Shown here piece by piece: positions 9,501 to 35,910 of a stretch of 64,000 nt of DNA. Source of the stretch: Macrostomum lignano. Its lineage: Eukaryota. The translations under genes were made by a program, and so were the position numbers. The stretch is taken from the NCBI GenBank assembly GCA_002269645.1, contig NIVC01000759.1, positions 248,001-312,000 on the forward strand, given 5' to 3'. Every line of letters starts with the position of its first letter. Position 1 is the stretch's first letter. A model generated the notes under the pieces. The model saw only the letters and a list, made by a program, of their open reading frames with translations, made no database searches and was not told the DNA's origin.

Positions 9501-12500
9501 AATTTCTCTTTTTTACACTCTAGAATATAAATAGCACAACCAAACTTTCCTACAGGCCTTAAAATTGATAGCTGGCGGGCAATTCATGATAACTTTACAA
9601 TGCCGGGTGTCGCAGCTAAGTTCCAAATCGCGTGGAGCCTCGGCACCTACATGGATTGCGTCATATCCGTCCAGGACGGGTACAGCGCCACGTGGAATTG
9701 GAAGATAAATGGGAGCATCGACAGCTATCGCAACTATAAATTTACCGTCAGTCACGTGCTGAATCAGCCGTATGGCGAATACTTTGTGAATTACAGTTGC
9801 AGCAATGAAATTAGCCATTTTAAAGAAACAAATATCATTCTGCTTAACCCCAACCTAAATACTTCCTTGACCATCACGACTCTGTACGAGCGCATGCCGG
9901 CACCAAACAATGTTACTTTTCTATTTCGAACAAACGGTACAGGCGATGGATACTTAAAGTTCAATTGCAATTTTACCTTCTATTCAGACAGCGTAAAGTT
10001 TTATCAGGACCTCAAGCTGTACTACGATTTTCCGCTCAGCATTTCGCATGTCTACGATCTTGAGCAATCTTCTGTCACTTCGAATGTGCAGTGCTGGAAC
10101 TCGGGCGGCAATTATACTGAAAACTTCGATCTTCTGTTTTATGCAGCATTTCAAATTTCAGGCGTCAAAATAAGCGTCAATAAATCAGTCCTGCTCACAG
10201 GAGAGCAGTTTCCGGTGCAGCTCACTGTTCAAAATGGTACTGATGTCACCTACACGGTGAACATGACTGATGGTACAAGCCAAGTGATTGTGCATCCCGA
10301 GCCTTTGTCATATACAGAGCCCGTTAACATCACCCACTCATTCAATGATCCTGGAGTCTATGACATCCATGTTCTGGCTTCTAGCCCAATTAATGAGGAG
10401 AGCTCAATTTTGTCTGGAATCATCGTACAGAACACCGTCACTTTAATGACTCAGCCTGAATATTTTAGCGCTAAAGCACCGCAATTTGACTTTCCTTTGA
10501 CCCACACTGGAGCTGTGCCTACGAATGTGACTTGTAAATTCATATTCTCTGAAGCAGAGCTCAATAGAACAGTTAGGCTTCAAAATTTTTCAGAACCTGT
10601 GGTCCTTGACTGCCCTTCACACCTCATCACTGAGGAAATGACTCTGTCGGTTCACTGCTGGAATTTAGTGAGTCAGTACGCCAAAAACTCAACTGTGGTT
10701 TGCAATGAGCCAGTGTCAGGACTTACAGCCAATGCCAGTCACGTGTTTGTCCAGACTGGTCAAAACTTGACAATTACTATTCAAGTGTCCAACGGAACAT
10801 CCGTCCAATTCACAACAAGCTTTGGTGACTCCAGCCCAGAAAAGGTTAAAACATACTCTAGCAAGTACGCGGCGAGCAGTGAGACTCGGTTGGCGCACTT
10901 GTACTCAGCTGCAGGAAACTACACTGTTATAGTCAACGCCTCGAACCCAGTGAGTTGGCAAACAGCTCAGATCAACCCAATCGTTGTTCTGAATCCACTG
11001 ATCAACGTATCCGTCACCTACAGACAAACCGTTCTGTGGCCGTTCGAGGGGGCTGAGTTCGTCATCAACAATGAGCCCAATATGCAAGCTGGTCTTGTTG
11101 TTTGCGATTTCGGGTTCTCTACATACGGATCGAAAAGAATCTTCATCGAAAACCTGACGGACAGCTCAAACGCAGTTGTGACATTCAAATATTCGGTTGA
11201 AGCCATTGGAACTCAGCGTGTGAGCATGAGCTGCTGGAACCCATTGAGCATTGATGGCATCGAGCGGAACTTTTCAATAGTTGTGCTCAAGGACTCTGTA
11301 AAAATAGCCAACTTTAGCACAAACGGGACGGTTTGGCTTGGCACGCCGGTCGAATTCGTGCTTGATATGACAAGTTTCCCAAACGATACCTGCATTCTCG
11401 TGTACTACAATCAGACCAGCCTAATTAATGAAATTTTCGGTGCGCATAATTCCTGCCGGTCCATCGCAACACCGAACAGTCCAGCCTATACACAGGTCAG
11501 TCCCTCTAACTTGCGAATCACCTGGAAGCGAGATCAATCAAAAGTAGGCGTCTATTCTGTCTTGGTTTTCGCCTACAACAATGTGAGCAATGACTCGGCG
11601 CAAACATTTGCCACCGTGATTGACATCCCTTGCTACAAGCCAAGGCTGAGACTGTTTGACTCGGACGCATCTCCATTGCAAGTGTCGTCAGTGCAGACAA
11701 TCAGGAGGTCCGAGCAAATCAACCTCACTGCCGTGGCGCCATACAACTGCTCCAAGCTGACCAACATCAGCACATACTGGACCATCATTGCTGTACAATC
11801 ATCTACCCAGCTTCCTCTGTGCACTCACAACTCCGATCAGTGCTTGGTTCAGCGTCGGGTGTTGCCATACGGGCTGTACAATGTCTCATTCACTGCCGAT
11901 CTGACTGTGGATGCTGCTATGGCAGAGACTGTGTGGATATTGCTGAACGTCTCAAAGACTCCATTGAGTCTAGAAGCTATTACTGGTCCGGAATATGTTT
12001 CATTCAATCAGACCTTCGTGCTAAATGCGTCTGCGACGGCCACGGACTTTGACGTGGAAGATGGAGATCTTAGCGGCATGACGTTCCAGTGGAGCTGCTT
12101 CAGACCTGAAGAGTCAGACTCAGCCAAAACCATCAGCATCCTATCGCAGACTGAAGCCAGAGCGCTCTCAGAACTGAGAGGCTGCTTCGGTAACGGACCC
12201 GGTGTCGTGTACTTGGGAAACGCATCCATTGCGGGATCCCTCACTGTGAACTCATTCGATCTTGTGCCGAACGCAAGCTATGTGTTCCGAGTCCGTCTTA
12301 CAAAAGACACCAGAGAGGTTTGGCAATCAAAGACTGTGTTTGTTGAGTCACAGCCGAAGCCTGTAGGCCGACTTGATTGCGAGCAGAACTGCGGAGCCAA
12401 AGTTGTCGCCAAGAGGCCGCTTGTCTACAGACTTGTGTGCGAGCAGAACTGTGGCCACAAGTTCTTTGCCGTGAGCAGCAACTTGACGATTGTTCGGCTC

Positions 12501-15500
12501 GGTGTCAGCGGAGACGAGATCGAGGGAACTCGCCAGTCAAGCAGCGATGGCCAGGAGCTCTCGATTTCGGCTGGCACACTGATGGAGAGCTCCTACTACA
12601 GAGTGATGGGACAGCTGTGGAATCTGGGTCAAGAGACTTCATACCTTGTTGCCAACATAACTGTGAATGGGCCTCCAGTAGGCGGCACCTGTCGTGTGGA
12701 TCCTCCTGGAGGTATGTGCTAGCAATTTAATAACAGTTTTGCATATTGCTTAGCAAATATCAATTTTTATTTTGTGCAGCGTTTTTTAAGATGGAAAAGT
12801 CTCCCATTGCTTAAGATTTTCTGACCTATAAGATAATTTTGGATTGTATCGCAAACGTTGTGTGACGGATCTGGTCTCCTGCATGAATTTTTCACTTCTA
12901 TTTGCTTCAGTGGTTAACATGAGGACGCTGGCCTATCTGACCTGCGCCAACTGGACGGAATTCGGAGCGTTCGTTGCTCCGCTGGCGTACTCGGCAACAC
13001 TCTTCCGGTGGGATCCGACTGAGTCGCCGACTCGATTCGACTCTAGTAGCGCCAGTTTTCCCACAGTTTTGCTGCCTGTCGGGGCAAGCAGCGGCTTGGG
13101 CAGCATTGAGTTTAAAATCGCAGATTCTCTTGGAGCAGAGGCGATCTTCACCATCAACATTTCAGTCAGTCTCAGAAAAGCTGTCAAATCTTTGGTCTGG
13201 GAAGTACGATTAAAATGAGACTTGCTCTCGATGTTTTAGATTTCGGCTCTGACGGGCACATCAAGCGAGTTGCTTTCTCTGTTGGAAAAGCTGCTGCACC
13301 CTCTCGACTCGATAATCGCAAGTTTATTCGCCTCCGGTGACTACAGCGCCGCGGCAGTCACCTTGAAGTCAATCGCGCTGGCCATGAATGCCTGGAACGA
13401 AGATGCCTACGGAGCAGCATTGTCTCCGGACGATTTGGCCGCATTCCAGCTGCGAATGACTGCGGTACAATTAGAGATTAAATGTCATTTACAAAGTGGC
13501 AAAAGTTTTAATTATTGTTCTACCTTTTCAGATGAGACTGAAGTATTTGAATTTTGTTAACGCTCTTCCGTTCAACTTCTCGGATGCGTTGCAAGTAACA
13601 ACCATTCTCTTGCGATTTGGAGTGAATTCAACAAGCCAGTTGGATATACCTGGACAGGTAATTAATGTTTGCAGATCAAGAAGCGTAAATAGTTTTTCTT
13701 TAAAATTGGCTTTATCTTTAAAAAACTTTCATCAGGAGCTTGCGGCAAAAACGCTGAGAAAAGTCATCGAACAAGCGCGTATCGAAAGAGCGAACCTGTC
13801 GCACAAAGCCAGCGAAGAAATTCAGGACAATCTACTCAAATCAGGGCTGAGCATTTGGAATGCCTCTGGATTTTGGGCTGGCAACTACAGTAACCGCAGC
13901 ATGGTCAAAGATGTCATGCTGAAGACACTCGACTGCATTGACTCTATAGGGCTTCTAGCGCTTGAGTCTGTCAGCAACTTCACAAAGGTCGAACCCGGCT
14001 TCGCTCTAATGGGCATAACACAGGACGTTCAGGATGCAAATGTCACTGGAGTGAAGGTGGAAACAGATATGGGAAGCGTCTCACTGCCCAGGTTCAGCGC
14101 GGCAGATCCGTCCGGCAAATGCAACATCACATTCATGATGAGCGCAGCCGATCCGTACCACTGGAGCCAGTCGGAGTCCAAAGTCACAACGTCTTTCCTT
14201 CGTGGCCGATCGCAAGGATGCAGCTTTTACGACTTTCCACCATCCCGTGGGCGATCAAGGCGGTCAGCTTCCTCTTCTCCGACCTATGAGATGCAGCTGG
14301 CCGGAGCTCAGGTACCGTTGCTCAGAGTGGCTAAGACTCCCACTGACAAGTGGCTCATGATGTATCACAGCTTCAATGCAACAGGAGAGGTCGTCCAGCT
14401 CGTCATCCAACCCGATGCTGGACATCAGCTCGAAGTTTTCCTGCACGAAGGCACCGCGCCAGATCCTCTTAACTACACTCTCCACCGAGTAGTGCCGCAG
14501 TCACTCAACTCGACCAATGACACCGCAACAAAGGAGCTGATTTTCATTCCAGCTGATATGTTCTCAATTAACCAAACGGTGTTCGTAGGAGTGAAGAAGC
14601 TGGGCTGCTCAAGGGACTCGTCTGGCTCACTGACTTGCAGCAACTGCACCTTGCTGTATCATCTGGGAATCTCCACTCAACAGTGCTACGCATGGGACAG
14701 CGGGGTCGACGAGTGGCGCCTGTTGGATAGCGCCAAGTGCCAGGTAAGACGACTTAAGTGACAGTCGAGCTCACAATTTTAGAGCTAGAATTCGAGTCTG
14801 ATTTGCAAATCGATCACTCTAACTTTCAGGCAAGCGAGCAGACGGCGGTGGCGAGGCCGGCTTTCAAGGTGAACCTATTCGGCAGCATCGGAGCTGGAAT
14901 CTCATTCGTGCCCAACACGATCGACTTCGGCAAGCTGTTCGAAAACTGGCAGGGCAAGCTGAGCGAAAGCAGGGCAGTGCTGTCTGTTGTGATCGTTCTG
15001 TGGGTTCTGTTCATTCCTCTGGCAGTGTTACTGAGACGAATGGACCTGCGGGATGCACAGAAGGTGAGCAGTCAGCCCAGCTCTGATGAGTCGTGTTTTA
15101 TGTCTTGTAAACCAGTTGACTTACTGTGAATCGTCTCTCATTTCAGTTTCAATTTTTGCCCCTGAAAGACGAGCGGGAGCAGAAAGGCTTCGTCTACAAA
15201 ATTGAGGTGTTCAACGGGTCGAAAAGAGGCTATGAAGTCCCTGTTGGAGTCTTCATCTCAGTTAAAGGCCTGAATGCGAGCGAGCTACTGAGAACTCTGG
15301 ATGACGGAGAGAGACGGGTCAGCTTCTTGTTTTTTTACTTTCCGAATTTTTTGATTCAAGGTAAACTGATTTTCAGATTAGTTACAATTCGAACCTTACA
15401 GAACTTTGAAAGCGGTGGTGTTGACAACTTCCTGATGACGACTAAAGCGCATCTGGGTGACATTCGATCCATCTGTCTGACATTTGACAAGACCGAGTCC

Positions 15501-18500
15501 GGTGCCGGCCGATGGTACGTCAGTCGCCTGATCGTCACTGACTGCACCAACGACAACAAGTACATCTTTGTGATTGAAGACTGGTTGAGTCCGGGCATCG
15601 ACTCTGCTGTCAACTGCGCCTCATCGATCGACCTCAAGTTCTCAAAGAACCTCGTCCGCAACCACCTGAGCAGACGGATGCAGGATGACCACATCTGGTT
15701 TTCAATGCTGCGACGGAAAGTGGACACAAACTTCAGTCGATTGCAGCGTCTCGGAGTGTGCTGGAGTCTACTCTTCATGACGATGATTGCCAATGCCATG
15801 TGGTATGAGCGAACTTTGTGTATTCAACTTCAAAGTATCTCATTTTTACAATAAGGATAAAGAGTAAAAGTAGTAAAATGAAATCCATCAACCTCTTGCT
15901 TGATTTGCCCTGTCTGATTCCTGCAGGTACGAAGTCGCCGACAGCTCGTCGGAGGCCTTCCGAATCGGACCGGTGAAGGTTTCTTACGGCTCCCTCATCA
16001 CTTCAATACTCGGTGCGCTCACAGTGCTGCCCGTGTCCATGGCGACTGTCCTGCTGTTTCTCAAGTCCAAGCGACAGCCGCAACATATCGAGCCTGCGCA
16101 GCGGTACCGACCTCAGTCGAGTCGAAGTCGGCGCGTCATCAACAGCGATGCGGCGATGACCGAGGATGTGACTGAGTCTGAGGAGGAAGAGAAGACCTGG
16201 ATCTCTAAATTCTCTCTGCCTCACTGGTGCCAGTACGTTGGTTGGGTGCTTCTCGTTTTAAGTGTGCTCACTGCCGGCGTGTTCATTGTCTTCTATGCAA
16301 TGGACTGGGGCAAGGAGAAGTCGGAAGGCTGGTTGCTTGCGTTTTTCTTTTCCTTCTTTGAGACGGTGTTGCTTCTCCAGCCGCTGAAAGTGTTGGCTGT
16401 CGGGTTGGTGCTGGCTCTGCTGATGAGGAAGGACTACGACTCCATGGATGCCCACAGCGTCCGAGTTCGCGAGATTCATGACGGTCGAGGTGAGATTTTG
16501 AGTGTTCTGAAATACTTTCTTTTATGCTGTAGAAATATGTTATTATTCATCAAATTTCAGAGAAGTTCATGCTTCTCCAAGACGTCCTCGCTTCGCAGTC
16601 GAACGACGCACTCCGCAAGAAGGCAAAGTCAACAGCGATCAGCATCGGCCTGAACCTTGCGTACCTGTTCCTTTTGTACTGCGTCTGCTATGGCTCCATG
16701 GATCCGGTCGTGTTTCACCTGAACAACGGCTTGAAGATGCGGCTTACCGTCAACCAGCCGAGTCCTCAGTTCAGCCTTGACAAGGTTTGCAATAAGGCCC
16801 TTTTTGCAATATTGGGATACAAGTTGTGCTCACTGTTTCTTATGTTTGCACTTCCCTGACGAACTCCAGGTGCAGAAATGGGAGGACATTCACACCTGGC
16901 TGAACCGCACAGTTCTACCAAATCTCTATCCGACTGTGGCTGCGAATGGCCAACCATTGAGTGAAGCTGAGCAGAAGTTCATCTCCGATGGTGTTGGCTT
17001 TCGGTTGGGTCGCGTGAAGCTGAGACAGCTCAGGGTGCGTCCCGTGTGGCGCGACTCTCTGGCAGTGTCTGCCGAGTACAGTGCGAGCACTGAAGATCGC
17101 AGCTGCTACGGCATCGGCTGGCGCACCCAACTGCCCTGCAACCACACTGGGAGCGGCCTTGACGCTGCATTCCACGCCAGAACGGTCACCCCGTGGCCAA
17201 CATGGGGCACGTACAACTCATACAGCGGAAGGGGCTACGTGCTCGACCTGCCAAACAACTTCTCTAAAGCCATCTCGCTCCTGCAAGAGGCCACGCATTG
17301 CCATTGGATTGATAACTACACACGAGCCGTGCTGCTTGAATGCAGCTTGTTCTACCCTGACACCAACTTCTTTACATCCGTGTCCATCCTGACCGAGCTG
17401 CCTCCGTTCGGCGGCGCCTTGAGCTCCGCCAGTCTGCGATCAACGAGCCTTTACCGGTACATCGGCGCCAGCGGAGCCCTTCGACTGTGTGCTGAGCTGC
17501 TGGCCGCTGCAATCACTCTGGTACTGTTGCTGCTGCAACTGCGGTCTTGTTGGCTTCAGGGCTTCTCAAAACACTTCTCCAATCCGTGGAATGTGTCGCA
17601 CCTGCTCACAAACCTCACCATGATTGCCGGCCTCGTGTTTCTTCTGCTGCGCAGCTTCGCCACAGTTGCAGCCCTGGAGTCCATGCAGAACTCCAACTCT
17701 GGCAATCTGGAAACTGTCATGTTCTTCGACGAGTCGTTCTACTACTGCCTCGGCATCGCCATGTTCCTCGTCCAGATCGGCTTTCTCAACCTGGTCCGCT
17801 ACTCCCGCAGTCTGGCCCACCTGTCGGGCACTCTGAGGAACTCACTGTCGGAGCTGAGGTCGTTCTTCTGGGTGTTTCTCGTAATCTTCTTGGCCTTCGC
17901 CTTCATCGCCAATCTGGTTCTGGGACCCGTGGACGGAGAGTACCGCAGTCTGATGCAGACGATGATCACACAGCTGTCCGTGATGCTGGGAAAGTTCAAT
18001 GCCACTTTTGAAGACAGCCGCAGCGCCCTGTACAAGATCCTGTTCTTCTCCTACACATTCACGATCGTGTTCATAGTGCTGAACATCTTTGTGGTTCTGC
18101 TGAATGAGAGCTATGCGGATGCGACCAACTCCAGCGACGACGAGCAGCAGCAGGAGGCTTTCCAGGTCGTCGACACTGTCATCCAGTCGTTTAAGTCCAT
18201 CTTTCGTTTGGAACGCCAACCGCAGTACTGTGATTTTGGTAAGTGAAACGTCCGACTGCAATGATTTTGCACAGTTGTCATAATAGTTTCCACCATAATT
18301 AGATCCAATACTTGTAAATGCAAAAACGTTTTAGTCAGTTCTCAGAGGTATATGACTCGACATAATCATTATAACGCAAACTTTATGAATCGTCCCATTG
18401 TCGGGAAGTCTTCAGATGATGGTTAGCTCTACCAGTCGATGCCAGTCAGCTCTAGTCAGATTAGATTACAGGCAGGGGGCTGTGTGCACCTTGGCGCACT

Positions 18501-18948: not shown

Positions 18949-19954
18949 GAGCACGAACAGTCAAACGAACTTATATTAATATTTGTCTTTTCTTTTTTCT
19001 CCATTTAGTTCAGTGTTAAGTTCAGTCCAATTTTCGTATTGTTCTTTTGGTAATGGACTATGATTGAACTAAATCGCCTCTTTTAAACGTGCGTTACGAG
19101 CTAACAATATTTAAAACTGTCTTTCTGCGAAAACTTTTTACTGTAAGCTTCTAATAATATTTACTATTTTTCTGCAACAGAATTACTGTATTCTTTCATA
19201 TTTAACTTTCTTTACTTGCACTACGCAGCATGCAGCGGTTCGAGTACCAGATTAGAGGGATCGCACCTACGTATACAGCGGGTGGCTTACTGGGACAAAA
19301 GAGGAACTGAAAAATTAATTTCTCTACACTGGCGCTTGCATGCTTCAACTTGATAATTAAACAATAAACCTTTACTGTCTTACAAATACTTTATTGGATT
19401 AGCTATTCTACTGCACACTGTTTTTTGCGCTTTGATCAGTCTTATTCGAGTTATTTATAATTAATCGACATTTCTATAACACAGTGAGGTACCGTGTGGG
19501 GCATTTTCTCAACAATGACGTTTGATACGATGCATTTACATGCAATTTGTTAAGGATGGAGGACCGTAGAGGTGATATAATATTATCAAACGAGTATTTA
19601 TACCTGAAATGAATATTTAGCGCCATGGATTTGATGCTTTATTCGGGATGCTGGCTGATTTTGTTGGTTAGACACTCCGATCATTTTGGCGCATTGGAGC
19701 AAAATTCTGGATTTGCATTATTGAACTGTGCAGGTTTAAGATGACTGTTTTTGGTCATTTAAGCGTTTTGAAAAAAAACTACAAAACCGGTCACAAAGGG
19801 CCTTTTCATATTACCAATTCCAGAACCAGAATCGGTTCGGAATTTCAAGAAAAACAGCAGTATAACTATTAAACTCTGTTAATATTTGACTGCCTTAACA
19901 ACCTGTCGGAGGGGTATTTAAACTGAGTTGGGAATCCTACAATTGCCACCAAGT

Positions 19955-20661
19955 TGTCGCAGGTGTAATTAATTATTGAATTTTATCTTATTTTACTAAT
20001 GCTGCCAGGTTGTTCCAGGGGAAATTTCGCTATAATTCTAGAGTTTCATTGAACTACTAAAATACGATGTTAGGAAGGTAAGATTATTGGCTTTCGCGTA
20101 AGTACGGATTGCCCTGGTAGCGCCCAGTGCCCGAGCGGCAAGACACTGTTTAGCTAGGGGGATAGGGGGGGAATGACTAAGTCCTAAAGCAGCGTCCTCC
20201 AATGGATCGAGGTTGCCCGGTGAATTTCAGTTTCCTCTTACGGATTTGCTTTTGTCATATACGACTTCACATTGGTTGTTCAGTTCGAATATTTCTATTG
20301 GGATATTTCTCCCTCTTCAATTGGCTCTCTACGCCTTTACTGCTCGCGGTTCCGCTATTGGCTTTTAGACTGATCGTCTTGAGCTTTCGGTAATTTTTAC
20401 CTGGCCAATGAGCATTCGCTCTTTATTCTTGGCAAATAAGGAAGGCTTTAGCAAGATTCGCTTATTCAGTTTGTTAGGCAAATAGCCTTGAACCAAAAAC
20501 GGTTGCCTGAATTGCCCAGAATTGCCCAGAATGACTCTGGGCGCTGAATTCCCTTCTATTTATACGAAAAATTGGGGTGGGGACGGGTGCATTCAAACAA
20601 AATTCTACAAACTTCGTGGTTACTAAGAAAACGGCGGGGATTCAAAACTTGGCCTCTCTCA
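19955..20661 (-). repeat. 3' LTR (707 bp)
   Basis: No difference from 29027-29733 found by eye. On the - strand: TATAAATAG (20556-20564) and AATAAA (20422-20427). Confidence 0.95.
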
Positions 20662-20664
20662 ACT

Positions 20665-20676
20665 GGCTTCCCTAAG
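20665..20676 (-). promoter_or_regulatory. Probable polypurine tract (TAGGGAAGCC) before the 3' LTR
   Basis: Short purine-rich run separated from the LTR TG by AGT; weak. Confidence 0.45.
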
Positions 20677-21288
20677 GATAATTTTCGAATAAGAAAAATA
20701 AAAGTGAGAAAATTATTCTACTCATTACTATCAGTAGTAAAACGGTGCAATAAAGTAATTAATGATAGAGCTAGATAAACAGACACAGAGATAAAACTTG
20801 TTTAGAAATAGGTGCACATAAAGTGTAGGCAGAATATGAAAGCATATAAAAATTAAGCAATAAATGTGATAGATTAATCGCAAAGCTAAGTATGAAGTTG
20901 CAAACTAGCATTTGGTGATACATGCTTAGGGATTAAAATGAGTGTAGGGTAAAATTCGTAAGCGTAGGTGTGAGAGTGCATTTCTTATGTAGAAGAGAAC
21001 ATTTATGCTTTACCTGGCGGATAAGTGAAAAAGATCGTCGATGAGTACTAGTATACTAATTGAGCAACGGTGCATAATCGCGTGCATAAAAATCGAACTA
21101 TAAAAAATGTAGCGCGTTGCAGGCACAAAGTCAACAAGTATTATTTCAAAGCACCATAGAATAATAATTCAAACAATTGAGTACTAAACTGACATAGATA
21201 AACATTAAGCTCACGCGTCTATGAATGACCTGTAATATTATAAGTAAGTAAACCTGTGCTAGCATCACTGGTATTAATAGTTCATATC

Positions 21289-23245
21289 TCACTCCATGTC
21301 GAACTCCTCAGGCAGCGGTCCTCCCCAGTCGAGAATCTCGGCCATCCACCTCACTTCGATTCGGAGAAGAGTGGCGTAGTACGGCTGGCCAGCCGCACGT
21401 AACGCCTGCAGCGCGTAGGCAACTGCCCGCCTCCAAGCGGCAATCGCCTGCTCCTGCGAGTAACTGTTGATGAGCAGAGTTAGAACCGGCCGCACATGGG
21501 CTCTCTGTGGTAGAGCGCGATCCAATCTGACGTTCGCAATGCGCATGAGGTACCTCCTGGTATGCCTTAATCAGGGCAATCATTTTCTTGAAATGGGCGT
21601 GCCGCTCTTCCGGCATCTCGCTCAGAATGCGACTTAGGTTGGCGCCAAGCCCATTCTCGTCGATGGGGCGCGGGAACTGTCTCCGCTCCGGTTGCTGTTG
21701 ATATTGAGGCTGGCTCACGGCGCAAGCCCCTGTCTTCCAGTCATTCGCCTGCGGGTAGATCATTGTCTGACGCGGCGGATAGGAGGCCGATTGTGAAGCC
21801 TGCGGTTGTTGTTGCAGCAGAGGTGGCGACGCTTGCGGCTGCGCCTGTTGCGACCATACCAGCGGCTGTGGCTGTGGTTGCTGCTGCGGCTGCGGCGGCT
21901 GCGGCTGCGGCGGCTGCGGCGGCTGCGGCTGCGGCGGCTGCGGCTGCGGCTGCGTCAACAGCTGCGGCGGCGGCTGCGGCTGCGGCTTTGGCTTTGGTGG
22001 CTGCTGCGGCTGTGGCGGCTGCGGCTGCGGCGGCTGCGGCTGCGGCTGCGTCAACAGCTGCGGCGGTGGCTGCGGCTGCGGCTGTGGCTTTGGCTTTGGC
22101 TGTCGCCGAGCCGGCTGCCGGCGGGGCGCTGATGACTTCCTCCGTGATGCTGTTGACTCCTGCCGAGCCGATCGCGCTTTCGGCGGGGATGTTCGCACTG
22201 GTCGCTGCTGCTGTAGCGGAGGCCTGGGCAGGATCCGCCGCACTGCGGGGCCAAGACGCAGCATTACCGTCGAATTCGCGGCTTCGGGGTGCCTCTTGGC
22301 AACATTAGGGCTGTCGATGACTCTGGCCGCCTGCCATTGCAGGATGGCAGCACGATTCTCAGCAGCCTGAGACACCGGGATCCGTGACGTAGCAGTCTTC
22401 TTGGACTGCACTGGGGCCCGCACTGGTGACCCGACTCGCTTGACCACCGACCGTAACCGGGCTCCGGGCTTAGTCGGCAGTGTGCGCTGTCTTTCGGGCA
22501 CCTCTATATCTCGGTCACCTTGAATCGGTGGGCGTTTCGGAACGGTGCTCCGGTTGTCATTGGCTGCGTCGCCCTGCTTGCCTGCAGTAGCGCCGGCTTT
22601 AGTGCCAGTTCCGGCTGGTGCCGACACAACAGTGCCAGCGTCGGCGGTTGCGATCGTGCCGGGGTCGGCCAGTACAGGGTTGCCAGATTCGGCAGATGCG
22701 GCTGTGCCAGGTTCGGCAATTGTGCCAGATTCGGCGGTTGCTGATGTGCCAGGTTCGGCAATTGTGCCAGATTCGGCGGTTGCTGATGTGCCAGGTTCGG
22801 CAATTGCTGATGTGCCAGGTTCGGCAATTGCTGATGTGCCAGGTTCGGCAATTGTGCCAGATTCGGCAATTGCTGATGTGCCAGGTTCGGCAGTCGCTAC
22901 CACTACTTCCTCCTGGAGATCGAACGGGTCGTCCAAACTCGGGAGCTCGTTGAGCAAGAAAATTCGTCTTCTTGATCGCTCATAGCTGTTTCCGAAATTC
23001 TCGGTATCTCTGCAAATATGTGTGGCTTCCTGGGCCTCGCTTATATAGGCCTCTCCGGGGGGGGGGGGTCCCAGGAAAGGGATCGTGGCCTCTGATTTGT
23101 TTAGACAGCCAATTTCCCACCAATGGGATTGCTTCCTCACGCCTTTGCGCCTGTGCGCGCCTTCCTTCTGTTTCCCGTCTCTCAATAGGTCAGATTGGGC
23201 AATAGGCGCCACACTGTAATCAGCCTTTTCAGATAGCACGAGCAT
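21289..23245 (-). CDS. Third ORF of the LTR element, unknown function (repeat-rich, no TM)
   Basis: 645-aa ORF from ATG 23245. AEPGTSAI/AESGTI repeats and a Q/P tract. A likely 1-nt shift near 21550 continues it into the helical ORF 21289-21546. Confidence 0.6.
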
Positions 23246-26200
23246 CTGTTCGGGGGCTTAATCTGACTACGAGTGTTGTACCTCTTCTCAGGTCTAGGCG
23301 CCTCTTCGGTAATCTCGTTTGCCTCTTGCTCAGGTTCGAGCTCTTCTCTTTCTTCCTCTTGTATTGACTCTGCTTCTTCTACTTCACTGCCTTCTTCCTC
23401 AAAAATCTCACTATCAGACTCACTTGATGCTTCATCCTCGCTTCCACTTTCTTGCTCTGATTCTTCATTGTCTCGGAGATTGCATTGCCAATTCAGGCGA
23501 TCTTCATCTTCCGATTCTTCATCTTCTTCTATCTCTTCCTTCCGGGGGTGGCTTCCCTTAACTTTCGCTTCTGCGGTGCTGCGCTGGCTTCCCTTAACTT
23601 TAGGTTCCCTCGCAATCGCAGTTTTGTCTAACTGGCTGGCGGCAATTTCTTTAACTGAATTTGGCACTACAGCTAAATTGTCCCTATGCACTAACAACTC
23701 TTGCCCTACTAGCTTTCCTTCTTCCTCCTTCTGCACCTTAAAGACTACTTCTGAAATTTGCTTCAAAACTCGGTATGCTGATCTTCGCTGTCTATGGAAT
23801 TTATGCGACTCCTCGTTATCTAGCTGCGGGTTATTAATAAGCACTAAACTCCCTAACGGTACTCGTTTTGGCTGTTTGCTAGTTTCAGCAGCGGTCTGTC
23901 TTTGGTTTATCACCTTCTCCAATTTCTCTTTTACGAGCTTCTGTGCGACATTTAGTCTTTCGGCATGTTCGGAAACATAGGATGGATAGCCTGCGTAGTG
24001 CTTTGAGTCCTTGATCTGATTATCCATAGGTAACACGGCTTCCCTTCCAAATAACAGGAAATGGGGTGTGAAACCTGTTGTCTGATTGACACTGGTTCGG
24101 ACAGCAACTAGCGCAGCGGGAATCATTAGATCCCAGTTATTGTGGTCTTTCTTGATAAGGCACGTAATAATAGACTTTATCTGTTTATTGAACCTCTCTA
24201 CCAAGCCGTTGCTCTGGGCATGGTAGGGGGTAGTGAATGTCTGTTTGACATTATAGAGTTCACAGAAAGCCTTGAACTGCCTGCTGGAGAATGTTTTACC
24301 GTTATCGGTATGAATCCAGTGGCACTGTCCGTACTCACTAAAGATTCTCTCCTGCAGGATTTTAATGACAGTATCTGATTTCTGGTTGCGGATCGGAAAG
24401 GCAAAGGGGTATCGCGTGGTGCTATCAACCACTGTGAGCACATATCGATGCCCTCTTCTACTCTGCTTGGATATTGGTCCGATTATGTCAATATGGAGGC
24501 GGTGAAATGGCTCGCTGATAGGGAAGGACTGGATGGGGGCTTGGACCTTATGTCCTCGTTTGCTTTCCAGACAGGATATACATTCAGAGATGTACTTCTC
24601 AACTGCCGTGGTCAGACCGGGTCTCCAAAATATCTCTCGGACCTTCTGGATGGTCTTGTCTCTGCCCAGGTGTCCAGCTAGTGGGCTATCGTGGAGATCG
24701 CCAAGAACTAGTCTGTCTAATGACTCTGGCAGGACAACCTTCCAATTTTCGTCCTCTTTCACGATTAACAATTCGTTTTCGATTCTCATAGCCTCATAGG
24801 CTTTGCACATTTGCTTTAACAGCGGGGGGTCGGTTCTCTGGGGCACTGGGATTTCAACTTTCGCACATTTCCATTGCACGAGGGTTCGGATCGAGGGGTC
24901 CTCTCTCTGGGCATTAACAATTTGGTCACGCTTCAGCGGGACGGGGAGGTAGTCAGTCAAGAGCTTATCGACTCTTCGCACCTCGCTCTCTTGTTCGAGT
25001 CTGGACATTACAGGGATTTGGCTTGATTGTGCAAGGTTCAAGCTCAGTGGCTCCAAATTGTTATCCTGAACACGTTTACAAGGGGCAGAGGGCTGGGGGA
25101 CTGATTGGCACGGGGGCTGGGCGGCTAAATGGTTGAGCGAGAGGGGGGTTGGGGCAGGGCAATCGGGTATTGAGTCCTCAACTGGCGGCTGGGCCTGGCT
25201 TGTACAGCTGTCCTCTGCCTTTGCCTTCTGACTCAGTTCGGCCAATTCGGCTCTGTTGGGGAAGGGAAATTCTGTGTTGGCATTATCGCCTTTAGTCACC
25301 AATTCAGTGTTGGATTTATCATTCTGGCCTGTTTCGGCTGTCTCAGCGGGTCTCCTGGACAAGCTGTCCGCGTTGGTATGCTTGGCACCACTTCTGTGTT
25401 CAATGTCAAATTGGAACTCAGTCAGGCGCTCAATCCAACGTCCTAAGATACCCTGGGCTTCAGTCTGCCGTAGTAACCAAAGGATTGCTTTATGGTCAGT
25501 TCGGGCAAGAAATCTTTTTCCGATCAAATAGAAACGAAAGTGTCTCATAGCGTCTACTAGTGCTAACAACTCTTTTCGAGTGATAGGGTAGCGCTTTTCC
25601 GACTCTTTCATTGCACGGCTAAAGTACGCAATAGGCCTTTCGACACCATCGGACTGGATCTGGCCTAAACAGGCCCCAATCCGTCCTTCACTGGCATCGG
25701 TATCCAGAACCATTTTGACATTTTCGTCATCTACGAATTCAGGATACGCAAGCACCTCTGTTGACATCATGCGCTGTTTTAATGATTCAAAAGCCTTATC
25801 ATGCACCTCTGTCCACTTTGCTGAGAAATTTTGCACTCCCTTTCGGGTGAGCTGGAACATTGGATGCGCGGCTTCAGCATAGTTTTCACGAATCGACTGT
25901 AATAATTACACAGTCCTAGAAAGCTACGTAGCTCTTTCACCTCTTTCGGTTTAGGCCAGCTTTTGATCGCTTCGATCTTTGCTTCGTCAGTTCGAATACC
26001 ATCCCTTCCTATCACGTGGCCTAAATACTTCAGCTCTCTATGGAACAAATTGCACTTTTTCGCTCTAAGCTTTAATCCGGCATTGATTAGTCTCTGGAAA
26101 ACTTCTTTCAAATGAGACAAATGGTCTTCGAACTGCTTTGAATAAGTGACAAATATCGTCAATATAGGACATTGCAAACTTGTGCTGAATTCCAGCAAGT

Positions 26201-27975
26201 ACTAGGTTCATTAACCTCTGAAATGTACCGGGGGCATTGGATAATCCCTGTGCCATCACCTGGTACTCGAACTGTCCTCTAGTCAGGGTGGAGAAAGCTG
26301 TCATGGGCTTATGTTCTTCCTTAATTGGGACCTGCCAATAGCCTGAGTTAAGATCGAGGCTACTGAAGAATTGGCTTCCTGTGAGATTAGAGAAGGTTTC
26401 TTGGATATTCGGGAGGGGATAGGGGAAATAGTTCACTCGCGAGTTTAACACTCGGAAATCGCTGACAATGCGAATGGTGCCATCTTTCTTTGGCACGATG
26501 ACCAATAGGGTGGAATAGGTGGAATAGCAGGGACGGATGGGATTTTTCGCTAGCATATCGTCTAGCTGGGCGTCAACCTGCTTTTGGAGATGGGGAGGAA
26601 TTCGGCGAGTAGGGATTCTCACAGGGGTGTTGTCTTTCAGAGAAATTTCGTGGGTCACTAAATGAGTTAGCCCCATATCGAGGTCATGTTGAGAGAAAGC
26701 TTCTCGGTGTTCTTTTACTAATGCTACTACTGCTGCTCTCTGTTCAGTAGTCAATTCGGAACCAATGCTAATTTCACTCACCCACTCTTCTTCAGTGGCT
26801 TGGACCTGATTGACACGGGCTGAGTCTTGTGCTTCTGCTGCTGATTGCTGATCTGATGTCGGCGGCGACAAATAGAGCAGATCCTTGGCCTTCACGGGCT
26901 TAGCGAGCCCTACCAGTGCAGACTTAGGCAATTTCACTTCGACGGGATGCCGATTCACAATTTCGACGACTGCGGTGCCTTGCTGCATGGTGACCAGAGT
27001 CGGGATCATTTCGATCGTTAGCTCTTTGGCTCTTACGCCATCACCAATTGTTTCTATGGTCATTGGGGCGCCATAGTTAGCTTCGGCATTTTTCGCCATT
27101 CTTACTGGAATGCGCAGTGCGCTGTTCGCAGGGATAATTGCCTTTTCTTGAGTGTACACTCTGCAGACTCGTACAGGCATATGCGTGTACTGCATAGGTA
27201 TGCAGGCTCCTTCTTTCAGGATCAGCATCCCTTTTGTCAGATGAATGCTTTCGCACTGCTCAAGAAAGAATTCCATTCCCAAAATGTTGTCACATTCGTG
27301 GCCACATAATAGGAACGTTATTTCAATTCGAATATCTCCAAACTCAACAGCAACGGAAATTTCTCCTTCTAGCTGTACTGTGGCTCCGTCAAAAGTAGAC
27401 ACTCTTCTACTTGTACTTTTGATTTGCTCAGGCTTGAAAATCTTAGACCAGACTGACTTACTAAGGAAATTATTGCTAGCTCCAGTATCTAGCAGGAAGT
27501 CAATCTCTTGGCGATTGATGTTGCCTACTACGATCGCTTCGTAGCTCTTGGGGCTGATTAGCTCGAGTTTGGCATTGGCTGGAGTCTTCTTGGGTTTGCG
27601 GCGGCGATTTCGACGCGACTTCTTGAACTTGACAGTCGTCGGCGTGATGACTGAGGTCTCGGCGATTGACACATTGGGTGAAGTAAGCAATTGGGATGAT
27701 GCTGCAGCAGATGCGAGAGCTGCATCAGCAGGTGCGGGTGCTGACACTGTAGACGATGCAGGCATAGTGGACGCATTTGGTGCATTTCGCGTATATACAG
27801 GGTGCATTTTCGCATTGGGTGCATAAGCATTTCGCTTGCGTCTTTTTACAAGTTGCCATCCTCCGTTTGCTGTATCGCAAGCGGGTTGGCGGGGAATTTG
27901 GGAGGCCTGCATTTCGCTTGGGGCTCTGCTTGAGGGACGTGGCCTCGACTTCGGACCCTCGCCATTCAGTTTCCC
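23182..27975 (-). CDS. pol: Pol (PR-RT-RNase H-integrase), reached by -1 frameshift; two 1-bp indels in RT
   Basis: FLLDTGAS (PR); [25 protein letters not shown] (RT); LDTDAS, ELLA, TDHK (RH); [25 protein letters not shown] (IN). Assembled from ORFs 26065-27912, 25779-26198 and 23182-25860. Confidence 0.93.
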
Positions 27976-28931
27976 TGATTCGGGTTTCTTGGCGGAAATC
28001 GGTGCTGGTTGGGTCTAGCCGACTGTGGCTGAGACTGCACTGAGAACCTGGGGCGCTGGTTCATTAGCGGGGGTGGCCGTGGCTGATACGCCCTTGGCTG
28101 ATAGCGCACATGCTGGGGCTGAGAAGCCATTTGCTGATAGCGTACAGGCTGAGGCTGTACTACAGCAGGCTGATAGTGCATTGGCTGAGTAGCCATTGGC
28201 TGGTACACCTGCACCTTCTCTTTGCGGCTCTCCGCCTGTAGCTCCTGAATGAGTTTTCGCTGCTTTTCCAGCTCCTCTTTCTGCTTTTTGACAATTTCTG
28301 TCAGACTCTCCTTCTCTCCTTCTTCATCTTTCATCACTCTTACTCCGTTCTTGTGAGACATGTGCCAAGCAGCTTCGATGCGCCTCAACATGCGCCTAGC
28401 TTCCTGCAGGCTAGCTGGCTGCGCAAAGATCAGCTTCTCCCTTGTATCTGAGGGGATTCTGACACCTTTTATGAATTGTTCTACCACCTCCTCTTCTCGT
28501 TGCTCGGCATTCATGTTTGGGAATGCTCGGCTTGACAGCTCTATCAGGGCATCAGCGAACATGTCGGTCGCCTCATTTCTTCCCTGCATCCTTCCTCTAA
28601 ATTCTTCACGGAACTCGGAAGCACTTCCTAGCCTACCAAATCTTTCTACAAGCCTATCCTTGAACTCCTCATAGGTCAACTCTTCTGGCAAATTCAATCG
28701 CTGAACTGCAGCGAAAGCAGTTGACAAGTCCAAATTAGCTACTAACTCAGTTTTCCTATTGGCTACGTCTATTCCTTCGGCGTCACATCGCTGATCAAAG
28801 GCTACCAGCCAGATGCGGATATCCTGGCTGGGGGTGTACTTCTGAATTTTGATATGTCTCATGGGCCCTAATTCTAGTCTATTCCTCAACTCTTCTGCTA
28901 ATAGTCCAATAGCATCATTGATTGCTGCCAT
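27966..28931 (-). CDS. gag: Retrotransposon Gag (321 aa), no CCHC knuckle
   Basis: ATG ORF ~80 nt after the PBS. W...F...C, ANL, ETDMFADALIELSSRAFP and VEQFIKG are capsid-like motifs; coiled and Q/P-rich tail. Confidence 0.85.
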   Translation of the reverse strand: MAAINDAIGLLAEELRNRLELGPMRHIKIQKYTPSQDIRIWLVAFDQRCDAEGIDVANRKTELVANLDLSTAFAAVQRLNLPEELTYEEFKDRLVERFGRLGSASEFREEFRGRMQGRNEATDMFADALIELSSRAFPNMNAEQREEEVVEQFIKGVRIPSDTREKLIFAQPASLQEARRMLRRIEAAWHMSHKNGVRVMKDEEGEKESLTEIVKKQKEELEKQRKLIQELQAESRKEKVQVYQPMATQPMHYQPAVVQPQPVRYQQMASQPQHVRYQPRAYQPRPPPLMNQRPRFSVQSQPQSARPNQHRFPPRNPNQGN

Positions 28932-29011
28932 GGCTTCCGAGTCTATAGTTTCTCTTTGTCAATTCGACTTTTCAGCAATATCGGGTCTGTTCACCGGATC
29001 TCGATCCCTTT

Positions 29012-29023
29012 CCGCTGCCACCA
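29012..29023 (-). promoter_or_regulatory. Primer-binding site TGGTGGCAGCGG, complementary to the tRNA-Leu 3' end
   Basis: Plus strand CCGCTGCCACCA matches the ...CCGCTGCCA-CCA 3' end of eukaryotic tRNA-Leu(AAG-type); it lies 3 nt from the LTR. Confidence 0.8.
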
Positions 29024-29026
29024 AGT

Positions 29027-29733
29027 TGTCGCAGGTGTAATTAATTATTGAATTTTATCTTATTTTACTAATGCTGCCAGGTTGTTCCAGGGGAAATTTC
29101 GCTATAATTCTAGAGTTTCATTGAACTACTAAAATACGATGTTAGGAAGGTAAGATTATTGGCTTTCGCGTAAGTACGGATTGCCCTGGTAGCGCCCAGT
29201 GCCCGAGCGGCAAGACACTGTTTAGCTAGGGGGATAGGGGGGGAATGACTAAGTCCTAAAGCAGCGTCCTCCAATGGATCGAGGTTGCCCGGTGAATTTC
29301 AGTTTCCTCTTACGGATTTGCTTTTGTCATATACGACTTCACATTGGTTGTTCAGTTCGAATATTTCTATTGGGATATTTCTCCCTCTTCAATTGGCTCT
29401 CTACGCCTTTACTGCTCGCGGTTCCGCTATTGGCTTTTAGACTGATCGTCTTGAGCTTTCGGTAATTTTTACCTGGCCAATGAGCATTCGCTCTTTATTC
29501 TTGGCAAATAAGGAAGGCTTTAGCAAGATTCGCTTATTCAGTTTGTTAGGCAAATAGCCTTGAACCAAAAACGGTTGCCTGAATTGCCCAGAATTGCCCA
29601 GAATGACTCTGGGCGCTGAATTCCCTTCTATTTATACGAAAAATTGGGGTGGGGACGGGTGCATTCAAACAAAATTCTACAAACTTCGTGGTTACTAAGA
29701 AAACGGCGGGGATTCAAAACTTGGCCTCTCTCA
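29027..29733 (-). repeat. 5' LTR (707 bp)
   Basis: Direct repeat of 19955-20661, followed on the - strand by ACT and then the PBS. Confidence 0.95.
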
Positions 29734-30166: not shown

Positions 30167-30560
30167 GGGGCGCTTCATAAGACCTAAATTTCACAACCCC
30201 TAAAGCACATGACTTCACATCACCTAAATTTCATAACGCCTAAAATCGAAAATGCAGCCTCCTTCACAACGCCTAAATTTCAGATCGCCTAAATTTCACA
30301 ACGCCTAAATTTCACAACGCCTAAAATTTCTGCACGCTCCTTCACATCGCCTAAATTTCATATCGCCTAAATTTCATAACGCCTAAAACCGAAAATGCAT
30401 CCAACTTCATATCGCCTAAATTTCATATCACCTAAATTTCACAACACCTAAAACTGAATGTGAATGAGAGAAGCAAAGATTTTAGGCGTTGTGAAATTTA
30501 GGCGATATGAAATTTAGGCGTTGTGAATTGTGGTGGTTTTAGGCGTTGTTTAGGTGTTTG
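30167..30560. repeat. Array of 16-bp units (TTCACAACGCCTAAAT), ~14 direct then ~5 inverted: foldback-like
   Basis: CCTAAA cores from 30183 to 30450, TTTAGG cores from 30480 to 30555. Confidence 0.75.
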
Positions 30561-32244
30561 AGCATGATTCATGCTCATCAGGTCACATGCATATGCATTA
30601 CATGTGCATGTAAATATTTAATACTGTATACTGCCCTGTTCCAAGGACCACTAGGAACACGTACGCGTACTTCGTTAAAGGCTAGTAGTCCTTGCCCTTT
30701 TCCTAAACATTCCTAGCATACAATTACCTACCATAATTCAGAATAAATGAAACATCAAGTCATGGACTTGCTTTCCAGCTTTGAGAAAAAATCATAAAAA
30801 TAAGTTGAGTCAATCGACGTACGTACGGTACGGGCTATTGAGATTTTGTTCTGGTGCAGCCTAAAGTATATTTTTATGCTGGTATAGCCACACCTAGCTC
30901 AATCTTAGTACGTGGTCTTAATTCTTAAATTCTTGCCTCGTAATAATCCACATGCAAAAACTGAATCAAATGCTTTATAAACCGATCAACGTTTCTAACT
31001 TTTTAAATTCTGCCTTTCTTAGAAAAATGACAATAATTAATTTATTCGGCTAGGCCTAATTAGGCAGCTCTCAGCAATAATTTTAATGTGATTTGGATTC
31101 TGCCTGCGGCCTGTCTGTTTAACTGTTTCTGAGTTTTCTGAGACCAAAAGCTTTTTTTCAAATAGGCAAGGCCTAGTCAAGTTTTAACTCTAAGTCTAGT
31201 TTCAAGGTTATAAAATTCTTTCTAACCTGCTAAATAAGAATTTACCTGCATTATGCTGGCAGCATTCAGCATAGGCCCCTAGGCCCGGCTAAGCCTAGAA
31301 ACTAAACGAAAACTCAAGTCAAAACTCCACTCCAAGAGTCTAGGCCTAAATAAATTGGCATCATAAAAACAAAGTTTGCAGATACAGGTCCTAACCTATA
31401 TTCCTTTAACAAAGTGTAAAAATTCATCTCAAAGTTGAACTGCTATGCCTAAACTAGATTTTTGGGGATCTATAAAGTTCCCAATATCTTAATGAGCTCA
31501 TATTTAAGTACTATATGCCTTCTTATCATTCCATTGATTTTCATATAGCTTATTTATATATTATATAAATAGGAGCCTAGGGCCTATCTAAAATTTTAAC
31601 AATAGATCTAATTTTGATAGGCCTATTTAAATCATTTGTCTTGTCTTTTAATTATAGATATTGCCTACTATAATCTAAGAAATGCATCAGTGCTTTTTAT
31701 TTTTGAAACTAGTTTAGTATGAATAATAATTAAAGTGTTTCAAATAATTAGGACTTTATCTAAAGATAAACAAGTTAGGCCTAGCATTTAAAAATGATAC
31801 CCTATATAATTATAGACCTAGGCACTAATCTATGACCTAGGCCTATCTTTATAAATATATTTTATACAAAAAAATTATATGAAACTTTATTGTTTAATAT
31901 AGCCATTATAGGATTGGATTAGCTAGGCCTATTTTGAACAAACTATATAATTTTTTTATTTATTGAATATTAAAGGTCAAACAATATTGAAATCATTGGG
32001 TATGGGATTGGGAATAATTTTTTTCTTAAGATTGGTATTAGGATTTGGGAATCAGGATCAGGTCTTCCATACATGCGCAACAGTTGGCCAAGTCGGCCGA
32101 TCCGGCCGACCGATTTGGTGGCCAACCAAGGAAGTCGCAAAAATGCCCACCCAAAAAACACCCAAGTAGTAGTACTAAGTAGCTGACGAGGCATTTTGGC
32201 TTAATAAGACAGTCTGCGGGCTGCGGGCGGTCAGGACCTTGGAC

Positions 32245-35200: not shown

Positions 35201-35300
35201 TTCCTGTCGGGGAACCCGCGCCGCCGATCCAACAAGCTGCGGGGAGCGAACCCGCGACCTCGCCAATTGCGCTGCGACCACACCCCCGAGAGGCCAAGGT
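32245..35300 (+). pseudogene. Decayed Ty3/gypsy (Mag/K02A2.6-like) gag-pol remnant
   Basis: CRRCGKMGHFTWAC (CCHC), LIDSG (PR), RHPIPT/FSELDIAKAFYQ (RT) with YxDD altered to WIHD, RPVAYASR/YSQTEKEALA/TDHKPL (RH), HRGH..CRAC, PQANG..RLNRS (IN). Many frameshifts and deletions; no LTR pair found. Confidence 0.88.
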
Positions 35301-35910
35301 GAAAGTGAACTATAGGGTTGAACTAAAATTCGCGCTTGGCAGACTGACGCTAATATCCTTGGGTGCGTTTTGATTTTGCTTTTGCGTCGCGAGCTTGCGA
35401 AAAAATAGTCATTCTGTAGCTAATGCACTATAATCTGTAACATTTTGCCGACTAATATTCTTCTTTGCAATGTTTGTGGTAACTTTCATTTTAAAAAAAA
35501 CCTTTTACAGTTGTACTTTTAATCCGATACGAGGCATTACAATAGGCATAATGTTGTAATCATATTAGTAATGACGTAATGAGTACAAGTAATCACTAAA
35601 TCTACTAATTTTGAATCAAAAGACCTGTTCCCAATTCCCATTTTTTAGAGTTAGGACCCCAATCCTGCAGGGATAGAATTTTCCTTGGGATCCTAAGATT
35701 TCGGGGTTGGGATTAGGATCATTATTAATCAAGAAAATATAGGCTTTTTTATTCCTATATTTAAGTTACTTTAATTTAATTGAAAAAATTTTTTCTGAAA
35801 TTAAGGATTAAAAAAGAAAAATAATAAATTCTTGAATTGTCAACGTTTCAGGCAGTTATAAGGTTACATTGGTAATTTTATTAGCAGCAAAATATTTGGC
35901 AAAGGAGTGA

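Follow-up and report, generated by a model that had tools for sequence, protein, structure and literature searches.

A Ty3/gypsy element with a third open reading frame

The window, by which we mean the entire stretch of 64,000 nucleotides of Macrostomum lignano DNA that was analyzed, carries a 9.8-kb Ty3/gypsy element on its minus strand, and this element contains the open reading frame studied here, ORF3. All coordinates of the element are positions in the window, and all its features lie on the minus strand. LTRs, primer site, polypurine tract, gag and pol are all present, as expected of this class. The 5′ LTR (TG...CA, 29027 to 29733) is identical to its 3′ counterpart; its ends were set by comparing relatives, and a TATA sequence is found about 98 nt from its start. 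It is followed by a primer-binding site of the tRNA-Leu type (29012 to 29023), whose longer form in relatives matches tRNA-Leu genes of the host. gag (27966 to 28958) gave a weak match to Pfam Retrotrans_gag (E 0.036), and the slippery heptamer near 27975, at its end, suggests a frameshift from gag into pol. pol (23182 to 28014) encodes, in order, protease, RT, RNase H and then integrase, followed by an acidic tail; it is in three separate frames in this copy, and pol frames of other copies are 1500 to 1640 aa long. Beyond ORF3 come an AT-rich 3′ untranslated region with the polypurine tract (20663 to 21288) and the 3′ LTR (19955 to 20661), which with 11 nt of primer-site sequence makes up the segment from 19944 to 20661.

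The insertion sites of family members are AT-rich and 4 bp long. Target duplications of 4 bp, long LTRs and a frameshifted gag-pol are traits of the Gmr1/Osvaldo clade, and they suggest that the family may belong to it. The Ty3/gypsy clades reported for M. lignano are Mag, CsRN1, Gmr1/Osvaldo and Mdg3 (PMC12801592).

Next to the insertion, a multi-exon polycystin-1-like gene with PKD, REJ and polycystin channel domains occupies 6900 to 18250 on the plus strand. On the other side are an array in which a 16-nt unit is repeated and is accompanied by an inverted copy (30173 to 30540), the arms being up to 98% complementary, and a second, decayed LTR-retrotransposon pol with RNase H and an integrase zinc finger (32183 to 35302, plus strand). 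Unrelated minisatellite arrays are densely packed between 36100 and 64000.

ORF3 is a pseudogene in the window copy

The initial annotation had described a large sense frame that overlaps the end of pol. A 649-codon stop-to-stop frame is indeed present on the minus strand (23257 to 21308), but its overlap with pol is leader DNA that is open by chance in this copy. Intact relatives begin at an ATG ahead of an acidic helix, which in the window corresponds to 22983, approximately 200 nt past the pol stop. The segment previously read as a Cys/His/Trp-containing N terminus is thus part of the leader. With bounds taken from these relatives, ORF3 extends from 22983 to 21289. The frame from the ATG at 22983 closes after 26 codons, revealing a break near 22960 that had escaped the initial annotation. 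The second break, near 21550, is real, because contigs of runs X3 and X4 span the site without a gap; its explanation by one extra base disagrees with sister copies. Beyond that break, the helical C-terminal part lies in a second frame (21570 to 21289), which stops about 630 nt short of the 3′ LTR, as had been proposed.

The two LTRs show 0 mismatches over 719 nt, and their identity had been taken to imply that the ORF is retained. That inference does not hold for this copy: pol is also in three frames, no target-site duplication was found at the element, and 11 nt of primer-site sequence are attached to the 3′ LTR. At 19944 to 19954 the primer-site sequence continues past the 3′ LTR with no target duplication, and the end of one other fetched element (L040) is similar. 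With two breaks in ORF3 and two in pol, the window copy is a dead member of its family. Its movement would have used proteins from other copies.

ORF3 is conserved and under purifying selection

We searched the genome with the C-terminal 87 residues. All 150 of the candidates scored, out of 224, were matches, with identities from 100% down to 30%, so that the genome contains at least 150 matches to the domain. Eighty further stretches were fetched (L020 to L099), 60 of which contain the domain; 40 of these 60 have an intact ORF3 of 279 to 535 aa, a share inflated by the fact that 40 of the 80 stretches were picked mostly for long open frames. Among 20 stretches picked on integrase alone, 18 bear the domain, and ORF3 is intact in 9 of them, compared with 8 of 18 for pol (at least 1450 aa). 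ORF3 is broken in each of the four nearest copies examined, as it is in the window copy. The tandem elements L034 and L035 (G000 C1098) are identical to each other, with an intact pol and a shared stop within the ORF3 domain.

A codon model on 27 domains gave an omega of 0.051 (log-likelihood of -7873, versus -8528 when omega was set to 1 and kappa to 2), a rough value, as synonymous sites are largely saturated. Three unsaturated pairs gave 0.15 to 0.25, and the 25 measurable pairs ranged from 0.15 to 0.79, with a median of 0.37. The domain is therefore under purifying selection, with dN/dS well below 1. No ancestral host gene was found that would make ORF3 a captured fragment. Thus, the three outcomes named at the outset as counting against the proposal, namely, frames broken at many positions across copies, a dN/dS near 1, and capture from the host, were not observed at the family level. 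ORF3 is a conserved accessory gene of one gypsy clade, broken in the window copy.

Outside this clade, at least 12 of 18 more distant elements (integrase 53 to 61% identical) carry an ORF after pol. One group of these gave a weak profile match to ORF3 (probability of 19%, E 0.0012, 94 columns) and may be remotely related to it; a second group gave no homology match. The ORFs after pol in the distant gypsy families L080 to L087, L091 and L095 to L097 are other unclassified proteins of the disordered-plus-helical kind. A profile search of 1.84 billion proteins returned 7 hits, 5 of them named, all hypothetical or chimeric models of M. lignano, and 2 unnamed. One database protein, P0001, resembles the ORF3 of locus L073. 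Because repeat-derived proteins are under-represented in such protein sets, the range of the family may exceed M. lignano.

Protein layout and predicted fold

The conserved order of the protein is an acidic amphipathic helix, a disordered basic and Q/P-rich middle and a basic five-helix domain. The N-terminal helix (22900 to 22983 in the window) resembles an activation domain or an export signal. Of 46 ORFs, 45 have a net charge of -4 to -9 over residues 1 to 25, and the remaining one is a truncated frame. The AEPGT/AESGT repeats of the initial annotation are present (22681 to 22898), but the weight placed on them was not warranted: they are a subfamily-specific linker that occurs in none of the 40 intact ORF3s. 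The middle region contains a few short conserved motifs (22320 to 22500), i.e., a PxRxPTRP-like motif (32/40), a basic cluster (27/40) and a short helix (23/40), and its repeats vary freely between families. The Q/P tandem tract (21862 to 22118), also noted before, varies in length and sequence.

The C-terminal domain (21289 to 21660), of about 120 aa, is conserved, and in the window copy it is split by the frame break. It is basic in 27 of 27 sequences (median pI of 9.8). AlphaFold2 predicted five helices for the domain of a natural relative, with a mean pLDDT of 87.9. Pfam searches with the window ORF3 and the 27 domains gave nothing credible, the best E value in a PDB sequence search with the domain was 0.22, Foldseek found no match at E 0.001 among solved and viral structures, and the ESM Atlas gave no usable hit. 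With VIA-align, the best Z score over 48,161 chains was 7.2, with no clear winner, which does not establish a new fold. A Bcl-2-like or death-fold domain found no support in this comparison; Bcl-xL rows reached only Z ≤5.1, at an rmsd of 4 to 5 over about 105 aligned residues, and there was no sequence match.

We confirmed the earlier view that ORF3 is not an envelope protein. It has no signal peptide or transmembrane segment in the window copy (maximal 19-residue hydropathy of 0.93), and the maximum over the 40 intact ORFs is 1.11, with no hydrophobic segment in 40/40 and an acidic N terminus. The Cys-rich fusion ectodomain of an Env protein was likewise rejected, given a median of 2 Cys, no Pfam family and a mostly disordered model.

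ORF3 and the LTR differ together between elements with similar gag-pol

We compared families with near-identical gag-pol and found that ORF3 and the LTR differ sharply between them. In five autonomous pairs, gag-pol bins are 87 to 100% identical and ORF3 bins 37 to 64%. Because the integrase dS is about 0.1 while that of the domain is about 1.5 in one pair, the divergence of ORF3 is better explained by cassette exchange than by fast change in place. Among 26 pairs with the same backbone, which were drawn from 14 elements and are not independent, domain identity correlated with identity over the initial 250 nt of the LTR (rho of 0.59), as opposed to the last 250 nt (0.03) or integrase (0.25). 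Physical linkage of ORF3 and U3 alone could explain this co-variation without any function. In the pair L051 and L056, the LTRs are 98% identical and the domains only 77%. The motif TTGTTT[AGT]A is present in 20 of 28 LTR starts (first 260 nt) and in none of 28 LTR ends or 36 integrase windows, counts that are uncontrolled for AT content; it is possibly a host factor site.

Eleven of the fetched elements, 4.9 to 6.0 kb long, have no integrase. Their LTRs are at least 99.4% identical in 9 of 11, and ORF3 is intact in 10 of 11, although these elements were picked for long frames. In three pol-less elements, the domain is identical to that of an autonomous partner. In five of the pol-less elements (L044, L055, L061, L063 and L069), a diverged gag-like ORF of about 200 aa and residual pol-tail sequence accompany an intact ORF3.

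A predicted internal promoter, a histone H1 element and an LTR-less gene

The region upstream of ORF3 has features of a promoter. A TATA box is found at positions -125 to -55 in 10 of 24 families, compared with 0.8 expected, while a strict TATA is missing in the other 14. The 70 nt ahead of the ORF3 start contain 1 ATG; 20.9 would be expected, a figure that falls to about 14 once the choice of start is taken into account. In the window, the predicted promoter and 5′ leader extend from 23200 to 22984, with the TATA at 23047 to 23041; the CCAAT-bearing segment of the promoter in other copies is absent here.

A longer promoter element is located at -118 to -149 in 11 of 24 families, all of one branch, which is not that of the window copy. 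Its 30-nt form occurs nine times in the genome, six times before ORF3 and three times in the promoter of linker histone H1, in the same orientation. The loci of this form are L130 (1501 to 1530), L131 and L138 for one of these two contexts and L132 to L137 for the other. The H1 protein did not match ORF3 proteins, and a literature search on H1 promoter elements returned nothing. The 21-nt core has 400 genomic occurrences. In L115 to L123, L125, L127 and L128, it is mostly in tandem arrays with a period of 29 to 50 nt and unrelated spacers, and two are before a GPCR-like ORF.

We also found an LTR-less gene at three near-identical loci (L103, 1501 to 1857, on G000 C846; L104; and L105). It consists of the internal promoter of the element, an ATG-started helical domain of 118 aa and a downstream AATAAA, and no gag, pol or LTR was found within 10 kb. 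The loci differ pairwise by 1 to 4 synonymous and 1 or 2 conservative changes. The gene is an annotated gene model, and the M. lignano models of this set were built from RNA data (PMC5730564). In an unrooted tree it groups with one element branch (bootstrap of 100), and it has the promoter of that branch, which points to its derivation from the element. No orthologue was found among 13 candidates. We regard this gene as a candidate domesticated inhibitor.

Because of the TATA, the depletion of ATG, the element shared with H1, and the retention of the promoter by the LTR-less gene, transcription of ORF3 probably starts at an internal promoter of its own. A conserved splice acceptor was not found before the ORF3 ATG; one branch has an AG there that its sisters lack. 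Contigs of putative RNA runs cover parts of the element and include no joint between LTR and ORF3, but contigs cannot show starts or levels. Local alignments of the internal promoter with the LTR of the same element revealed no shared response element (mean rank of 0.39 over 19 elements), although this approach would overlook a site that is short or degenerate.

ORF3 as a putative activator of element transcription

We favor, at a probability of roughly 0.4, the reading that the ORF3 product is a nuclear activator of element transcription, similar to foamy virus Tas and made from its own internal promoter. Host factors would start a short mRNA immediately upstream of the ORF3 ATG. Its product would attach through the basic five-helix domain to the U3 region of the LTR, or to a host factor located there, and would draw in co-activators through its acidic helix and Q/P tract, yielding more genomic RNA. 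We prefer this reading because a layout like that of Tas agrees with the predicted promoter, with the acidic helix, the Q/P tract, the basic clusters and the basic domain of the protein, and with the linkage of its gene to U3. Foamy virus Tas combines an acidic activation domain with an internal promoter (PMC517496). Like Bel1/Tas, ORF3 is an accessory gene near the 3′ end with an acidic region of the activation type and an internal promoter, the latter predicted here. Unlike in Tas, the acidic region is N-terminal rather than C-terminal, and the element has no env (PMC517496). We found no sequence or fold match between ORF3 and Bel1/Tas, and no shared response element. Several observations argue against a transactivator: the internal promoter and its own LTR showed no common response element, no DNA-binding fold was recognized in the C-terminal domain, a strict TATA is missing in 14 of 24 families, and the N-terminal helix suits an export signal equally well (14/20).

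The main rival, which we consider rather doubtful, is an RNA export factor similar to Rev or CERV. The basic domain would recognize an RNA element of the LTR or 3′ region, and the helix at the N terminus would act as a CRM1 export signal for unspliced genomic RNA. N-termini were scored with the class-1 export-signal pattern, which is present in 14 of 20, compared with 3.7 in shuffles and 1 of 119 30-mers from the middle region. Nevertheless, any amphipathic helix outdoes shuffles (11 versus 4.6), and 6 of the 20 N-termini have the acidic helix without the pattern. The co-variation of the domain with the LTR would suit an RNA element too, and a structured LTR stretch (z below -2) was found in 6 of 10 elements, although the other 4 gave no such signal. 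As no conserved splice acceptor was found, there is no evident intron for an export factor to bypass. The precedent is CERV, an RNA export factor encoded by the gypsy element Cer1 of Caenorhabditis elegans (PMC10309623). ORF3 resembles it as a lineage-restricted accessory protein of an animal gypsy element, with no homologues elsewhere and candidate nuclear import and export signals. CERV differs in being spliced, in sharing gag exons and in having three folded domains and a Cys loop, whereas ORF3 forms a distinct 3′ gene and has a single helical domain (PMC10309623). In the host, the coding sequence of the CRM1 binding groove is split by an intron.

Anti-silencing, one of the functions suggested initially, is still a live rival, though an unlikely one. 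ORF3 would then be a counter-defense adaptor that engages a host silencing or chromatin factor, or draws it away, and an arms race between host and element, instead of sequence-specific binding, would account for its rapid turnover. Very different ORF3s on near-identical gag-pol, short conserved motifs in a disordered region that would suit protein docking, the retention of ORF3 by pol-less elements and the failure to find a specific DNA element are all consistent with such a role. On the other hand, purifying selection acts on the domain, neither an enzymatic nor a reader domain was recognized in ORF3, and no host partner was found.

The initial annotation had also suggested a condensate scaffold or a targeting factor, neither of which gained support from the copies. 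A factor that cooperates with Gag or integrase in the particle, in a condensate or in integration targeting would agree with the long low-complexity region and with insertion at AT-rich 4-bp sites. It is improbable, however, since ORF3 does not track the gag or integrase sequence, is retained in elements without integrase and has a separate predicted promoter, and its repeats vary freely among families.

That ORF3 has no protein function is very improbable and largely refuted; it would then be a chance or passive frame, a fragment captured from the host or a decayed env. The broken window copy, the four nearest copies examined, also broken, and the 20 of 60 domain-bearing stretches that are not intact speak for this view. 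Against it, omega is 0.05 over 27 domains and 0.15 to 0.25 in the three unsaturated pairs, the predicted fold is confident, a hydrophobic segment is absent in 40/40, and the sole homologue found outside the elements groups with one element branch, whose promoter it has.

Beyond the transactivator reading itself, one can envisage a broader scenario, which we offer as speculation and judge quite unlikely as a whole. An animal gypsy clade would have independently become a “complex” retroelement, in which the helical domain, undescribed so far, belongs to a transactivator encoded by a swappable cassette of ORF3 and LTR. In one branch, the promoter element would have been taken from the host histone H1 gene, timing expression to dividing cells, and the host would have domesticated the bare domain as a dominant-negative brake.

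Relation to other accessory genes and significance

Extra ORFs in the env position are already known in rotifers (PMC5408684), plants (PMC11963269) and nematodes. Like ORF3, the accessory gene of maize Grande and the ORFs of Retand lie between pol and the 3′ LTR, and a nuclear protein and an own promoter have been described for them; they are antisense, whereas ORF3 is sense, and no Pfam domain is in common (PMC11963269). The ORF3s of bdelloid rotifer LTR elements are non-env cargo in the env position with modular exchange, as here, but they are recognizable enzymes (GDSL esterase, DEDDy exonuclease), while this ORF3 looks non-enzymatic and is unclassified (PMC5408684). The passages and supplements of the M. 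lignano LTR-element paper that were accessible do not mention a third ORF (PMC12801592), and no term for this ORF was found in the main text of PMC13524379. Literature searches returned no description, though repeat libraries, subscription papers and preprint supplements may annotate it. ORF3 represents a real, apparently undescribed accessory gene family. The earlier proposal of an undescribed non-env accessory protein is upheld at the family level, where no catalogued family matches, but neither the argument from the window copy, a pseudogene, nor the protein boundaries then drawn can be retained.

Few extra ORFs of LTR retrotransposons have an assigned function, and CERV is the one worked-out animal case in the literature that we found. 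The present family offers dozens of natural variants, pol-less carriers, a predicted promoter and a domain that is small and well folded and for which structure comparisons gave no clear match. Together with a host gene, free of LTRs, that consists of the bare domain, and an animal in which transgenesis is available, it would make a retrotransposon-encoded regulator and its putative host brake directly testable.
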